Below are positions 31,961 to 49,709 of a stretch of 64,000 nucleotides of DNA, piece after piece (within the stretch, counting starts at the first letter, position 1; the number at the start of each line of letters is the position of its first letter). Where the stretch lies: sequence record MT446416.1. One strand, given 5' to 3'. The translations under genes were made by a program, and so were the position numbers. The notes under the pieces were generated by a model. That model searched no databases. It was not told where the DNA came from and was given only the letters and a program-made list of their open reading frames with translations. The stretch comes from Escherichia virus TH47.

Positions 31961-32076
31961 ATATTATGGAGTATTTATATGTAAGAAAAATATCATTTTT
32001 GAGGTCAATATCAGAATTGCACTGATTATTCAGACTTACAAGGTCCGTGTTATACTCTTTTAACTAATCGACCTGA

Positions 32077-32169
<93 letters not shown>

Positions 32170-32170
32170 T

Positions 32171-32209
<39 letters not shown>

Positions 32210-32214
32210 AGCAC

Positions 32215-32583
<369 letters not shown>

Positions 32584-32627
32584 AATTGCTTTATAAGCTA
32601 CTGAATCGGGAATCACAACCTCCCCAT

Positions 32628-33145
<518 letters not shown>

Positions 33146-33154
33146 ATTTGTTTC

Positions 33155-33340
33155 CTATGAAATGAATGTAGCGTTAATTCCCATTATAAATGCAAATATA
33201 CCAAACAATATCAGACCGATTGGTACAAAGATCATAGATCTATTTCCATGTTTCGATAAAAATCGTTCAAGTATAATTAAACGTATTGATATAGGAACCA
33301 TTATAATAATATACAATATTGAAAGAATTAAAAGTTGCAT
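33155..33340 (-). CDS. small membrane protein (61 aa)
   Basis: Two hydrophobic segments. Confidence 0.45.
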   Translation of the reverse strand: MQLLILSILYIIIMVPISIRLIILERFLSKHGNRSMIFVPIGLILFGIFAFIMGINATFIS

Positions 33341-33366
33341 TTTAATTTCCTATTATCATTTCGTTT

Positions 33367-33439
33367 TGCGACTCTGGAGGAACTCGAATCCCCAACCAAT
33401 TAATTAACAGTTAATCGCACCACCAATTGTGCTACAGAG
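33367..33439 (-). tRNA. tRNA-Asn (anticodon GTT)
   Basis: Manual cloverleaf: acceptor GACTCTG/CAGAGTC, D-stem GCAC/GTGC, anticodon stem ATTAA/TTAAT with loop CTGTTAA, T-arm GGGGA-TTCGAGT-TCCTC, discriminator G. Confidence 0.7.
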
Positions 33440-33449
33440 TCATAATTAT

Positions 33450-34154
33450 TTACAAGCCATGTCTTTTCAAAAATCTAGCAAACACATTTTTGGAAGCACC
33501 ATAGCTTTCATATATACTAACTTTTTTCTCACCATTAGTCAAACGTTTTTTTATATCTTCTATGTTATCTTCTAAACGTTTTACGTTTGCAAATTTCTTA
33601 GATGGTATGTTATTTTTGGTTCTATAATTCAGTACTGAACCTGAACTGATATTCATTATTTTAGCAATTTCAGTATCTAACAAACCTTGGTTAATATATT
33701 CTTTTACCTTTTCATAATCAACTGATGTTTCACCACCCTTTGTATTTGACGGAGGCTTGACCATTTTTTGTGAACACTCAACACTACAATATTTTGTATA
33801 TGATTTCACTTTAGTATGTCTACGGGAAAATTCCGTATTACAACAAGCACATACAAATGAATCATATCGTGCTTGTACTCCATTCTTATGTGTTTTATAA
33901 CGATGTTCATCAACATGAAGTATTTGTAAATTAGACAAATCATCATTTGTGAAATCATTATCAATGTGGTCTGCTTCTTCAGACTCAGTTAAATATCTAC
34001 CTTCTTGTACTGCTAATAGATATCTGGCATATTGAGTACTGCTTCTATCAGTTGGAGAATTATAAAGTATTACAGTTCTTCTACCTTCAGGGTTTATCTG
34101 TATATACCCATTCTTCCAATCATTACTATATGGATATTCTAATTTTATTTTCAT
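33450..34154 (-). CDS. HNH homing endonuclease with C-terminal HTH-like domain (234 aa)
   Basis: HNH core EEADHIDNDFTNDDLSNLQILHVDEHRYKTH; Cys cluster CACCNTEF...CSVEC. Confidence 0.7.
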   Translation of the reverse strand: MKIKLEYPYSNDWKNGYIQINPEGRRTVILYNSPTDRSSTQYARYLLAVQEGRYLTESEEADHIDNDFTNDDLSNLQILHVDEHRYKTHKNGVQARYDSFVCACCNTEFSRRHTKVKSYTKYCSVECSQKMVKPPSNTKGGETSVDYEKVKEYINQGLLDTEIAKIMNISSGSVLNYRTKNNIPSKKFANVKRLEDNIEDIKKRLTNGEKKVSIYESYGASKNVFARFLKRHGL

Positions 34155-34507
34155 TATTTTATTTCAAAGTTTGTGAGCCATCTGTGAGTCGAACACAGTA
34201 CCTAACGATTCGTATAATCTATAGTTTTCACTATAGTACGGACTATATCATCATCCCATAGGGATGCCGGACGCTAATGATGTATTACACAGTAAGATCG
34301 TACTGTACCATCTAGTCTCTGCACCTTCCCAATACGCTTATTGGGCTTGGCTCAGGATTGTCATCACCATTACGTGTTAAGATTTCCCTGAATTCATCCA
34401 GTTTTTCAATCACCATTACTGATGAAAGTCACCATTGTCGATGAGTCGTTTGCTCTAACCACCGTGAGCTAATGGCCCGATTTGGGTGTTCCTAGTGTTT
34501 CATTATT

Positions 34508-34721
<214 letters not shown>

Positions 34722-34733
34722 AAATTAATTATA

Positions 34734-35126
<393 letters not shown>

Positions 35127-35219
35127 ATCACCAACTTTAATTAAAAAAATGGATGGTTACGCTTTTAAACGCCGCTGTTAATTCAGCTTTATAACCACCC
35201 GTTTTAACTTGCCTTTCGG

Positions 35220-35414
35220 CTACCTTGACGTGGGGGCGTACAGGCTACTAAAAGCAACTTCTGTAAACATATTTCCACACCTTACCCTTTTAAATAAAAG
35301 TCCATCCGGTTTTCCAGTTTGGTGAAGGACTGTCACCTCTAGTTTAAACCTGCTAGTCAAGTAATAATTGCCTATCGTCCAATTATCAAACCCGTCTAGG
35401 TTAACATTCACCAC
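35220..35414 (-). CDS. uncertain small ORF (64 aa) within a GC-richer ORF-poor stretch
   Basis: ggaag SD-like sequence upstream; could instead be part of a non-coding RNA. Confidence 0.3.
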   Translation of the reverse strand: MVNVNLDGFDNWTIGNYYLTSRFKLEVTVLHQTGKPDGLLFKRVRCGNMFTEVAFSSLYAPTSR

Positions 35415-35489
35415 TTCCTAGAGTGCCAGAGATCTTGTTCTGGATTTCATCGACGTAACTTACACCATATACGTCTGATTGTGGAATTC

Positions 35490-35514
35490 ATTATATCAGT
35501 ACTGAACTATTTAG

Positions 35515-35518
<4 letters not shown>
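35490..35518 (-). promoter_or_regulatory. sigma70-type promoter (TTGACT-N17-TATAAT) with TCAGTACTG in spacer
   Basis: Minus-strand reading ttgactaaatagttcagtactgatataat; near-identical to the promoter at 35903..35930. Confidence 0.5.
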
Positions 35519-35893
<375 letters not shown>

Positions 35894-35898
35894 TATAC

Positions 35899-36101
<203 letters not shown>

Positions 36102-36105
<4 letters not shown>

Positions 36106-36266
36106 ATTCGTACCAGTAGTTCAATTAAGTACATTTCATATGCTGGATCGTTGATAAGTTTATCATACAGATGTGACTCTGAAATGAATTCCCAATGATA
36201 TTTTCGCCATTTACCAAAACCTGCATATCTAAAATTAATGTCATTCATCCATTCTTCATGTGTCAT
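36102..36266 (-). CDS. small protein, MTHEEW tandem paralog 2 (54 aa), not in track
   Basis: Begins MTHEEWMNDINFRY...; 165-nt unit identical in length to its neighbours; ATGA overlaps. Confidence 0.4.
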
Positions 36267-36427
36267 AATCGTACCATTATTTCAATAAAGAACCACGGAT
36301 ATACTTCATGGTTTATAAGTTTATCGTATTCTGCTGGGTCTGATATAATTTCCCAATGATATTTTCGCCAACTACCTATACCCGAATATCTAACATTAAT
36401 GTCATCCATCCATTCTTCATGTGTCAT
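36263..36427 (-). CDS. small protein, MTHEEW tandem paralog 1 (54 aa), not in track
   Basis: Hand translation MTHEEWMDDINVRYSGIGSWRKYHWEIISDPAEYDKLINHEVYPWFFIEIMVRL. Confidence 0.4.
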   Translation of the reverse strand: MTHEEWMDDINVRYSGIGSWRKYHWEIISDPAEYDKLINHEVYPWFFIEIMVRL

Positions 36428-36465
36428 GGTTTTTAACCTTTAATTAAAATTGTCAAAAATGTATT

Positions 36466-37004
<539 letters not shown>

Positions 37005-37024
37005 ATCCTTAATATTATATTTTA

Positions 37025-37096
37025 TAAAGGGCCGGAGAATCGAACTCCGATTGGATTCTTAGAAGGAATCTGTTTTATCCATTAAACTAGCCCCTC
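37025..37096 (-). tRNA. tRNA-Arg (anticodon TCT)
   Basis: Manual fold: D-stem GTTT/AAAC, anticodon stem GATTC/GAATC with loop CTTCTAA, T-arm CGGAG-TTCGATT-CTCCG; acceptor GAGGGGC/GCCCTTT needs two G-U pairs including 1:72. Confidence 0.5.
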
Positions 37097-37156
37097 AGTA
37101 CTAATAATTATATCACATCTTTGTGGTCTGTCCCAGAAATTGTGATATAAAAGTTG

Positions 37157-46955: not shown

Positions 46956-47486
46956 TTAATCGAGTATAGTAACTTCAATCAAACGAATTTCGATGAATTC
47001 GTTTTCAGTTTCCCATGATGAACCTAATTTCTTATTAAGTTCAGTTTTAACATCACTTTTAAATTTTCCCATAGTATTAGGAATAATTTGTTTGGTTAGT
47101 TTGTCATAACCACAATAAAACATAGGTTTCTCCCTTCGAGATATTAGAACAACAAAATCCTTTGGATATGCAGGTATATTATGCATCACTTCATGAATGC
47201 ACTCAGTACTTGAATCTTGTACTTTGTACATTACATTAAGTTTACCTTTGAAAGTGCTAATCATATCAACAATAATACCTTTACCAGATTTAAGTAAAGT
47301 TCCATTCTTTGTATGAGAACAATAGAATACCTCATCACCAATATTAGGATAGTACAAATTAAATTCTAATTCTTCCTTTGATGACTGACGTTGAAATTTC
47401 ATTACACGTTCAGTATAGGTGGGGTAGTTCTTCATGTTCAAAAGAATATCTCTCGTAGTAAGTGTGATATAACTGGCATAGTCCAT
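46956..47486 (-). CDS. hypothetical protein (176 aa as listed; start probably internal Met near 47435)
   Basis: Annotated start overlaps the methyltransferase gene by 49 nt. Confidence 0.5.
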   Translation of the reverse strand: MDYASYITLTTRDILLNMKNYPTYTERVMKFQRQSSKEELEFNLYYPNIGDEVFYCSHTKNGTLLKSGKGIIVDMISTFKGKLNVMYKVQDSSTECIHEVMHNIPAYPKDFVVLISRREKPMFYCGYDKLTKQIIPNTMGKFKSDVKTELNKKLGSSWETENEFIEIRLIEVTILD

Positions 47487-49327
47487 CCATTCCCAAGCAT
47501 TTTATATGCTTGTGTCTTACTAGACACTTTAAAGAAATCTTCAGGAACGCCCTGTAATTTACAACATTCTACTACACTTAAGTGTCTATAGTCAATATTT
47601 CTTTTACCATTCTCTAATAGATATTGACGATTAATCATTGGGTCACGAAACACCAATTGTCGTCTTGATTTATTAAAGTACTGGTTGCAATCACCACCCT
47701 TAAAATAGTTAGCATCTATACAGTACGAAGCGGTCCTGTCAGTGTACCAACCATCTTCAATGATATCTTGAAGTTTAGGGGCATTTGATAATGCAGGTGG
47801 TATAAAAAGCTTATCAGTACTGCACCAGTAGTATCTCTGCCTGAAGTGAGGCGTATAATGCTGGGAATTTATCAGTACTGGTGTCATCTCAAGAACACTA
47901 TTAATATATTGCTTGAAATCTTCTTTCATTTTAACATTCTCGAACAGTACTTTCAAGTCTGGATTGAGACTTTTTATGTGCTCATAAATGTCAACCATTG
48001 TATGAAACAACATTCCACGCGGATCATTTATTCCACCCTGTTTACCTGCAACAGACCAAGATTGACAATTGTGCACAACTATGTTATTTGCGGTATATGT
48101 ATTGTCAACGGCAACTTCAAAATTATATACGGTTTTCCATTCACCTGTCGAAATACTTGTTTTTATACCTTTAACCCATGAATAATTTTCGTCATAAAAA
48201 GCTTCCTCTTTTTTGGGTTTGTCTTTTTTATATGATAAAACATAATACGGTTTTTGGTTTACAATTCGTCCCTCAATAACTTTAGTTTTTTCTGGTTCGG
48301 TAAGGCTTATGTTGGAATGTCTTCCGTAAACGTTCATTATTAATTGTTGGACACCTAATACACAGTCTATTGATGTTGTAGTGAATTTATAACAATTACT
48401 ATCAATATGACCATCTGCATCAAAATATCCATCAAGGAATGCTTTTTGGTTCTGTACACATTCATTGAATAAATCGGGATGAACTTTCTTATTAGATGCA
48501 CCTTTACCCATTTGTTCACAGAATTCAACGAGTTCTTTTGAACATATATAAAATTTATATGATGTTCTTTCTTTGACATAATTATATTTCATGTTCATAC
48601 CTTCAAAACACGAAATCAATTCATCAAATTCATCATGTGCACAACAGATGAAAACTCTATACTGGTAACTATTCTTTCTATTATTACGCTTTACTTTATA
48701 AGTCCATCCGTCACCCATAAAGCGTCCCATAAAATACCAGAATTTTTCATCTTTTGATGATTTACTAGATTCAATTGATTTAACATTACAAAGAAAATGT
48801 TCAGATGTTAATTCGTGTGCCTCAACCCATTCAGGTTCAGTGAAGGATCGTTCAGATTGTCTAATTCTGTTATTCCAGCTAGACGACATTTTTCTAGCAT
48901 AAAATGGATGATTATCAGTGCATTCAATTGGGATATGACCTTGACCAGTTATAATACGGGTTGGTGCTTTTTTAACACCTGTACTCAATACTGGATGATA
49001 TTGTCCAGTATGTGTTAGTACCATGTCACCAACTTGAATGTCTTTAATGTCTTTATGACCTTTATCGGTCATTATCATTGTTCCTTCCGTGAAGCACGGG
49101 AACCCTCCCATGAGAAGGTCAATTTTATCCCACTCAATATCCCATTCTCTCCATTTAGTTACATCACCCAATTGGGTGATATCAGGAAAGTTAGCTTGAG
49201 ATTCAGCTATTGCGTACTTGTCAATTTCGGATGAATAATATTTTTCAACAGGGATACCAGCATCTTTTAATGCCATGTATCCCACACTCATCCCATTAAA
49301 AAGAGATAGTACTCGGATAGGTTTCAT
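47438..49327 (-). CDS. C5-cytosine DNA methyltransferase precursor containing an intein (629 aa)
   Basis: MTase motifs LSLFNGMSVG (I), GGFP-[intein]-CQSWSVAGK (PCQ, IV), LFENV (VI), RQRYY, MLGNGW (X); the extein sequence is contiguous only after removing residues 78-420. Confidence 0.75.
   Translation of the reverse strand: MKPIRVLSLFNGMSVGYMALKDAGIPVEKYYSSEIDKYAIAESQANFPDITQLGDVTKWREWDIEWDKIDLLMGGFPCFTEGTMIMTDKGHKDIKDIQVGDMVLTHTGQYHPVLSTGVKKAPTRIITGQGHIPIECTDNHPFYARKMSSSWNNRIRQSERSFTEPEWVEAHELTSEHFLCNVKSIESSKSSKDEKFWYFMGRFMGDGWTYKVKRNNRKNSYQYRVFICCAHDEFDELISCFEGMNMKYNYVKERTSYKFYICSKELVEFCEQMGKGASNKKVHPDLFNECVQNQKAFLDGYFDADGHIDSNCYKFTTTSIDCVLGVQQLIMNVYGRHSNISLTEPEKTKVIEGRIVNQKPYYVLSYKKDKPKKEEAFYDENYSWVKGIKTSISTGEWKTVYNFEVAVDNTYTANNIVVHNCQSWSVAGKQGGINDPRGMLFHTMVDIYEHIKSLNPDLKVLFENVKMKEDFKQYINSVLEMTPVLINSQHYTPHFRQRYYWCSTDKLFIPPALSNAPKLQDIIEDGWYTDRTASYCIDANYFKGGDCNQYFNKSRRQLVFRDPMINRQYLLENGKRNIDYRHLSVVECCKLQGVPEDFFKVSSKTQAYKMLGNGWTMPVISHLLREIFF
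48068..49096 (-). mobile_element. LAGLIDADG homing-endonuclease intein (about 343 aa) inserted at the catalytic Cys of the methyltransferase
   Basis: Insert begins CFTEGTMIM, ends NIVVHN followed by Cys; LAGLIDADG-like blocks FMGRFMGDGW and FLDGYFDADGHI. Confidence 0.7.
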
Positions 49328-49379
49328 ATAAAATCCTTTTTATATTGTTAAGGTACTATAATATATTATAGCATCTTAT

Positions 49380-49670
49380 TTAGAAATCTCCCAAACTTTT
49401 TTCATCACACCATCGTGATGTGCAGATGATTGCAGATGCCAAAATTGAAGCACTTGCTCGGCCTCCACCGAGTAAGTACTGGCTAATGACACCAATCATA
49501 TTGAAGACTTTATCATACTCAGCAAGGAGTTCGAAATCCTTCTTCCAACATTGATATTCTTCTTCAGTAACATTAAACTCATCACCAAGTTCATTTAAAA
49601 TCTTTTTTAGTACTGCACGATGTTCACTCATCGGATTCCCCATATCGTTCGTCGTAAAAATCATCATCAC
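49380..49670 (-). CDS. hypothetical protein (96 aa)
   Basis: ORF in gene series. Confidence 0.5.
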   Translation of the reverse strand: MMMIFTTNDMGNPMSEHRAVLKKILNELGDEFNVTEEEYQCWKKDFELLAEYDKVFNMIGVISQYLLGGGRASASILASAIICTSRWCDEKSLGDF

Positions 49671-49709
49671 GGTCCAACGGTTCTTTTGGTTTTTCTGTCA
49701 TATATTTCC

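Follow-up and report, generated by a model that had tools for sequence, protein, structure and literature searches.

The inteins of known structure that most resemble the element described here, TliVMA (7qsu/7qss), PI-SceI (Sce VMA1; 1vde, 1ef0, 1lws), PI-PfuI (1dq3) and PI-PkoII (2cw7), share an architecture in which a splicing (Hint) domain is split by a double-motif LAGLIDADG endonuclease, and a chemistry that uses Cys1, a TxxH motif, a His-Asn pair and a cysteine at the +1 position. They reside in a V-ATPase, a ribonucleotide reductase or a DNA polymerase. In a 64,000-nucleotide (nt) stretch of Escherichia virus TH47 (MT446416.1; hereafter, the window), we find the same architecture and the same catalytic residues in a different host protein, a C5-cytosine DNA methyltransferase (C5-MTase), where the intein directly precedes the catalytic cysteine of motif IV. 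The window intein also differs from the solved inteins in its compact length of 343 amino acids (aa) and in an obligatory proline at the -1 position. Its predicted fold matches theirs with Foldseek E values of 2.6e-17 to 2.7e-10 and template modeling (TM) scores of up to 0.72, at a sequence identity of only 10-18%.

Inteins in phage DNA methylases have been reported before. The mycobacteriophage DNMT-1/2 inteins (PMC5050341; PMC9957025) are likewise LAGLIDADG inteins with a patchy distribution and a history of horizontal transfer, and are 27-28% identical to the window intein. However, their hosts are N6/N4 methylases (PF01555), the only methylases among the mycobacteriophage inteins listed by Kelley et al. 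2016 (PMC5050341), and the junction in DocMcStuffins reads HV/C...KN/CP (here and below, a slash marks a splice junction). Closer in host is an actinophage survey preprint (bioRxiv 10.1101/2025.01.02.630785) that counts C-5 methylase (IPR001525) among 19 invaded protein types; this is the host-protein class found in the window, and the survey's main text, in the parts available, gives neither an insertion site nor enterobacterial jumbo phages. One actinophage protein, Propionibacterium phage B22 gp50, holds a related intein of ~29% identity at the same site (GGSP/C...HN/CQDLS). In the Rak2-like jumbo phages (Rak2, K64-1), which belong to the same broad group of giant enterobacterial phages, inteins that also combine Hint and LAGLIDADG domains have been noted in the large terminase only (PMC5259590), a different host gene, with no MTase intein. 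Our literature search found no description of an intein at C5-MTase motif IV. C5-methylase inteins being already known from actinophages, the jumbo coliphage case is a well-documented addition and not an exceptional one: it leaves the general understanding of inteins unchanged and offers a clean, well-supported example of a known phenomenon.

A preliminary description of the window, made from its letters alone, had proposed that a 629-aa open reading frame (ORF) at 47438-49327, given without a strand, encodes an MTase interrupted at its catalytic cysteine by an intein with a LAGLIDADG endonuclease. The ORF exists, 629 aa plus stop, on the minus strand, as do all features given below. Every string quoted in that description was located at the residues assigned to it: the N-extein end LLMGGFP, the intein start CFTEGTMIM and end VVHN, the C-extein start CQSWSVAGK, and the MTase and LAGLIDADG motifs, whose joint presence is far beyond chance. 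Pfam domains, splice residues and natural intein-less alleles all agree with the proposal. From the strings, Pfam and alignment, the N-extein (aa 1-77; 49097-49327) extends from motif I (LSLFNGMSVG; 49280-49309) to the GGFP of motif IV. The intein (aa 78-420; 48068-49096) is delimited by Pfam, AlphaFold and Foldseek, and is precisely missing from phages 121Q, WPEC5, G17 and Turkey3. The C-extein (aa 421-629, 209 aa; 47441-48067), placed by Pfam, alignments and structures, begins CQSWSVAGK, and its first residue, the +1 Cys421 (48065-48067), is the motif IV cysteine of PCQ, as had been claimed. It also contains ENV (aa 463-465; 47933-47941), RQRYY (aa 496-500; 47828-47842) and GNGW (aa 612-615; 47483-47494). 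By prediction, the precursor should weigh 73.3 kDa, the intein 39.9 kDa and the spliced MTase 33.4 kDa, the latter two matching earlier estimates of ~40 and ~33 kDa.

The strongest single confirmation of the intein reading is a natural presence/absence polymorphism. The source phage is a 121Q/PBECO4-like jumbo coliphage of the genus Asteriusvirus. Among 36 related phage records, ~32 have an intein-less MTase gene of 858 nt (286 aa), for example 121Q gp91, and four (JNE01, A4, ph0011 and UE-S1) have an intein at the same place. The protein 121Q gp91 reads GGFP-CQAWSVAGK unbroken, and the gap in its alignment with the precursor comprises exactly residues 78-420; the 286-aa alleles of 121Q, WPEC5, G17 and Turkey3 all run exactly colinear with the exteins. 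Intein-less motif IV DNA in 121Q and WPEC5 gp91 reads ...ATGGGAGGATTCCCA/TGTCAAGCCTGGTCTGTTGC..., where the slash is the insertion point.

The inserted segment holds a complete set of class-1 splicing elements. In the precursor, Pfam Hint_2 (E 1e-9, 39.4 bits against a cut-off of 28.4) and LAGLIDADG_3 (E 3.8e-7, 30.7 bits against 22.5) both scored above their gathering cut-offs. Cys78, the intein Cys1 (49094-49096), and block B T137-D-N-H140 (48908-48919) lie in the N-terminal splicing (Hint) region, with an approximate boundary at 48782-49096 taken from the Hint_2 match over residues 77-158 and from secondary structure in the model. Blocks F (VYNFEVAVDNTYTANN) and G (IVVHN), together at 48068-48130, lie in the C-terminal splicing region (48068-48202, by sequence and conservation), which ends in His419-Asn420 before the +1 Cys421. 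Between these regions lies the homing-endonuclease domain (approximately 48212-48769), supported by Pfam LAGLIDADG_3, Foldseek matches to I-DmoI and the ratio of nonsynonymous to synonymous substitution (dN/dS). Both of its LAGLIDADG motifs, FMGRFMGDG within FMGRFMGDGW (aa 199-208; 48704-48733) and LDGYFDADG within FLDGYFDADGH (aa 297-307; 48407-48439), retain their acidic residues, D206 and D305, respectively.

We aligned the window intein with 11 metagenomic relatives that are only ~30-40% identical. C1, T60, H63 and N343 (intein numbering) were invariant across the 12 sequences, and nearly so were the two LAGLIDADG aspartates and the residues that flank the intein, Pro(-1) and Cys(+1). An AlphaFold model of the insert had a mean predicted local distance difference test (pLDDT) score of 90.7 and a predicted TM (pTM) score of 0.89. 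TliVMA was its best Foldseek match (E 2.6e-17, TM 0.72), followed by PI-SceI, PI-PfuI and PI-PkoII, and the central domain matched I-DmoI with a target-normalized TM of 0.64-0.69. By sequence, the nearest solved structures were the gp41-1 intein and PI-PkoII. These data confirm the insert as a class-1 intein of canonical type that carries a LAGLIDADG endonuclease with two motifs and is situated between Pro77 and the catalytic cysteine. A group I intron, a free-standing endonuclease gene and a non-splicing inserted domain such as the ShiLan element (PMC9957025) were considered and set aside, as the insert keeps the reading frame, includes a Hint domain and bears the residues of a splice junction. 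Six-frame translation of the 64-kb window identified no second intein or LAGLIDADG copy.

The exteins encode the MTase. Pfam DNA_methylase (PF00145; cut-off 22 bits) matched the precursor with an E value of 1.8e-32 (113.5 bits), improving to 7.5e-39 (134.5 bits) for the spliced sequence, and TIGR00675 (NCBIfam dcm; cut-off 100.65 bits) scored 120.7 bits for the spliced sequence and 100.0, just under the cut-off, for the precursor. Residues 4-134 of the 286-aa extein-only sequence align unbroken over the junction to DNA_methylase profile positions 1-125. The alignment is also contiguous across the junction with DNMT3, M.HhaI and M.HaeIII structures and with the intein-less alleles; the preliminary description had named a broken extein alignment, or a lack of Hint similarity, as what would speak against it, and we found the reverse on both counts. 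Motifs I (LFNGMSVG), IV (GGFP/CQ), VI (FENV), VIII (RQRYY) and X (GNGW) are all present and are invariant across six Asteriusvirus alleles. Motif IV is contiguous after splicing only, with a predicted ligated junction peptide of ...LLMGGFPCQSWSVAGK. With the PC dipeptide split by 343 residues, it is a reasonable inference that the precursor would be inactive unless spliced.

Spliced MTase residues 2-282 align end to end with the catalytic domains of mammalian DNMT3C, 3B and 3A (E ~3e-24), which are equal to it in length, whereas matches to M.HhaI and M.HaeIII are weaker (E ~4e-18) and cover the N-terminal half only. As judged by these alignments, the predicted product is a phage enzyme of DNMT3 type whose target-recognition region is short; the resemblance hints that its target may be a short CpG-like site. 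That region (~aa 501-580) matched no characterized specificity, and the likeness to DNMT3, M.HhaI and M.HaeIII stops short of a diagnostic target-recognition region.

Taken together with the mobility data below, these sequence features make it highly probable (about 0.9) that a class-1 intein splices to yield an MTase and a free homing endonuclease, and spreads by homing. From established intein and LAGLIDADG biochemistry we infer four-step splicing, DNA cleavage and homing by repair; MTase activity and specificity are likewise predictions. After translation of the 73-kDa precursor, the Hint domain would perform an N-S acyl shift at the Pro77-Cys78 bond, trans-thioesterification onto Cys421, cyclization of Asn420 and an S-N shift. 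Two products would result, an MTase of 33 kDa whose PCQ catalytic loop is restored and a free endonuclease of 40 kDa. Cys421 would serve first as the +1 splicing nucleophile and then attack C6 of cytosine. In a mixed infection, the free endonuclease would cut the motif IV-coding DNA of intein-less alleles, and repair from the intein-carrying allele would copy the intein along with ~200 nt of flanking extein.

Alignment of extein-only DNA plus 1-kb flanks from nine phages (five intein-carrying, four intein-less) revealed a recombinant patch around the insertion site. In the flanks, the window is 97-100% identical to the intein-less phages WPEC5 and Turkey3, while between about -220 and +190 nt of the insertion point this identity drops to 70-88%. 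There the window instead resembles intein-carrying phages: it is 88-100% identical to ph0011, UE-S1 and JNE01 on the C-extein side (+29 to +209) and 77-100% identical to ph0011 and UE-S1 on the N-extein side. Of 118 differences from WPEC5/Turkey3, 75 are concentrated in a 445-nt interval about the junction (binomial P = 6e-29); at 69 of those 75 the window base is shared with at least one intein-carrying allele. The upstream side of the patch, where the gene departs from the WPEC5/Turkey3 backbone, occupies 49097-49315 (about -219 nt to the junction). At 18 sites, the five intein-carrying and four intein-less alleles have no base in common. Seventeen of these fixed differences fall between -21 and +182, and 16 at +36 to +182, defining an intein-linked extein haplotype, a candidate downstream co-conversion tract (47885-48067), that reads INDPRGMLFHTMVDIY versus LNDIRGQLFLVMVEIF at the protein level. 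The inteins of the window and JNE01 share 95% identity. Beyond the patch, by contrast, the JNE01 backbone matches the window at only 31-75% identity downstream of the gene and at 60-93% upstream.

This pattern strongly supports recent movement of the element between related phages, and is what endonuclease-initiated gene conversion with flanking co-conversion would produce. A second small mosaic patch lies at ~49600-49705 (-608 to -502 nt), in the gene upstream of the MTase, where the window matches 121Q, G17 and ph0011 (93-100%) over WPEC5/Turkey3 (88-92%). One conversion event may have reached this far, or the second patch may stem from a separate exchange.

The patch could also be the product of ordinary recombination between co-infecting jumbo phages, with an intein that splices, is inherited vertically and carries a dead endonuclease. 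Asteriusvirus genomes are mosaic elsewhere, the second patch also departs from the WPEC5 backbone, and endonuclease decay is known in the lineage (see below). We nevertheless regard this explanation as unlikely. It would not anticipate that both acidic LAGLIDADG residues are kept and nearly invariant, that the patch is centered on the insertion site with 17 of 18 fixed differences flanking the junction, or that an intein 95% identical to that of JNE01 sits in a backbone that is close to WPEC5 and far from JNE01. Nor does it fit the dN/dS of the endonuclease domain, 0.08 against JNE01 and 0.10 against A4, with 0.07-0.14 in the splicing regions and 0.02-0.19 in the exteins. The low ratio in the endonuclease indicates that it is under purifying selection.

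The related alleles also differ in their endonucleases. In ph0011 and UE-S1 (L004:1501-3378 and L005:1501-3378), the endonuclease domain is ~43% identical to that of the window, while the splicing regions are 73-74% identical; because of this disparity, one splicing scaffold at one insertion site appears to be shared by two endonuclease lineages. It suggests either replacement of the endonuclease domain or its far faster divergence. A metagenomic relative with a closely related MTase extein, P0004 (L014:4053-5708, Logan SRR22973663), has a 264-aa intein with a decayed endonuclease: ~76 residues including the first LAGLIDADG motif are deleted, and the second motif has become FLCGLFSSKCI, losing its aspartates, while splicing blocks A, B, F and G are intact, which suggests that loss of the endonuclease is tolerated. 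Among these alleles there are thus examples of invasion, of spread and of a decaying endonuclease.

Several points weigh against a splicing and homing intein. Ordinary homologous recombination between co-infecting phages could in principle yield the same patch, as discussed above. Part of the low extein dN/dS reflects divergence older than the intein invasion. A model of the full 629-aa precursor (AF2, from an alignment of 12 sequences; pLDDT 72.5, pTM 0.57) falls below pLDDT 50 at both junctions and in the target-recognition region; Foldseek searches with it returned intein matches only, and so were uninformative on the MTase half or on precursor activity. Most pertinent to splicing itself, and the most notable feature of this intein, is that the insertion site forces Pro77 into the -1 position. 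Proline there gave no detectable splicing of the CL intein (PMC13014065) and is reported to abolish splicing in other inteins (PMC6486613). With Pro(-1), efficient splicing would not be something to take for granted.

The wider family bears on this question. Searched exhaustively by phmmer, 1.84 billion cluster representatives yielded 5807 matches to the intein at E <= 1e-3, 740 of them at E <= 1e-30. We read the junctions in all 160 retrieved proteins, yielding 157 readable N-junctions and 156 readable C-junctions. The N-junction was P/C in 149 (of 157) and the C-junction HN/C in 148 (of 156), mostly HN/CQ (102) or HN/CT (24), which rebuild motif IV. Among the 148 closest representatives, 135 were C5-MTases. 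Single-sequence phmmer with the spliced MTase recognized only 92 of these 148 exteins, and a Pfam scan was needed for the other 43; the nearest non-MTase hosts were DnaE (7), ThyA (1) and a radical-SAM protein (1). All 11 full-length matches from a word-index search were also at P/C. The site is also occupied in phage isolates, among them Propionibacterium phage B22 (gp50), Lactobacillus phage Nyseid and Mannheimia phage 587AP2. By this sequence survey, the predicted site-specific family at motif IV is far larger than the literature suggests.

Because intact inteins persist in intact MTase genes over hundreds of divergent clusters, this distribution argues that the family does splice despite Pro(-1). 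The contrary view is that Pro(-1) leaves splicing poor or absent, so that the MTase is inactivated and tolerated as a pseudogene, or the 73-kDa fusion serves some other role. It draws on the published Pro(-1) results, in which the inteins tested so far, natural and engineered, are reported to have lost splicing (PMC13014065; PMC6486613), on the probable dispensability of the MTase in the laboratory, and on the Mannheimia phage 587AP2 frame, which stops soon past the C-junction. We find it highly improbable. An insertion that killed the gene would not be expected to leave hundreds of divergent clusters with intact intein, MTase motifs and Pro(-1), nor all splicing residues conserved in relatives only ~30-40% identical, nor intein-carrying exteins with every MTase motif retained and dN/dS of 0.02-0.19.

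A more specific idea, which we offer tentatively and consider possible though doubtful, is that motif IV inteins have evolved efficient splicing with an obligatory Pro(-1) and the catalytic cysteine of the host as +1 nucleophile. If true, they would constitute a Pro-tolerant splicing scaffold, and in the phage the intein might gate post-translationally when cytosine methylation starts. Hundreds of divergent inteins locked to Pro(-1)/Cys(+1) would, if they splice well, be of use in protein engineering, where Pro(-1) is a documented limit on the inteins now available.

Placement on the catalytic nucleophile makes MTase activity strictly dependent on splicing, and a regulated version of splicing can be envisaged, in which a redox or metal response, for example through Cys1 and Cys+1, acts as a post-translational switch timing MTase activity, which would make the intein more than a selfish element. 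Conditional splicing is documented elsewhere, such as zinc inhibition of a DnaB intein (cited in PMC8616854). Yet about 32 sister phages manage on the intein-less allele, the sequence holds no specific pointer to a sensor, and a selfish homing cycle would account for the patchy distribution, the co-conversion signature and the decay of the endonuclease. Such a switch is, in our estimation, very unlikely.

The natural phage set lends itself to direct study. Intein-carrying phages (the window phage, JNE01, A4, ph0011 and UE-S1) and intein-less phages (121Q, WPEC5, G17 and others) all grow on E. coli. They already offer two lineages of endonuclease, a decayed allele and the footprint of co-conversion, and could be used for measuring intein homing and the homing cycle in jumbo phages.

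The inteins themselves are unmarked in annotation. In the public records we looked at for the window gene and its relatives, intein annotation was absent: NCBI has the exact protein, on a 352-kb contig, and its cluster-mates are named 'DNA cytosine methyltransferase' or 'hypothetical protein', and the JNE01 copy is a 'hypothetical protein'. Some RefSeq names are wrong, apparently through intein similarity. In mycobacteriophages Squirty, Dante, Minnie, Pacc40 and others (H87-H108), an intein-containing gene that GenBank calls 'DNA methylase' is, in RefSeq or other copies, an 'anaerobic ribonucleoside reductase large subunit' or 'DNA helicase'. These wrong names likely spread through intein similarity to the NrdD inteins of Lactococcus 949-like phages. 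In Mannheimia phage vB_MhS_587AP2 (L010:964-2800), the MTase is annotated as two coding sequences, 'hypothetical protein' and 'cytosine-specific DNA methyltransferase'; the frame ends ~20 codons past the HN/CQS junction, with an HNH homing-endonuclease gene directly after, and this may be a broken gene or a sequencing frameshift.

Other inteins were seen among the family members. The metagenomic C5-MTases P0017, P0025, P0039 and P0124 appear to have a second related intein at another conserved motif, such as ENV/C...HN/CGAFSS (motif VI), and P0025 carries both the motif VI and the P/C intein. On a 97.5-kb phage-like contig with the intein-containing MTase P0001 (L009:11987-13554), the large terminase, of 1214 aa, likewise has an Intein_splicing domain.

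Around the window gene, a Shine-Dalgarno-like AAGGA (49334-49338), read directly from the upstream sequence, lies 6 nt before the ATG. Scanning the neighborhood for promoters and terminators gave 23 promoter-like sites where 20.3 +/- 4.8 would be expected, which is not above chance. The downstream 176-aa ORF (46956-47486) shares 49 nt with the 3' end of the MTase gene, an overlap that also appears in the annotation of phages G17 and ph0011; the WPEC5 annotation is a shorter version. The intein, at 32.6% GC, is slightly more AT-rich than the exteins (39.4% and 36.3%) and the whole window (34.3%). Elsewhere in the window, four minus-strand tRNA genes (Thr-TGT, Asn-GTT, Ser-GCT and Arg-TCT) lie within ~5 kb at 32001-37097.

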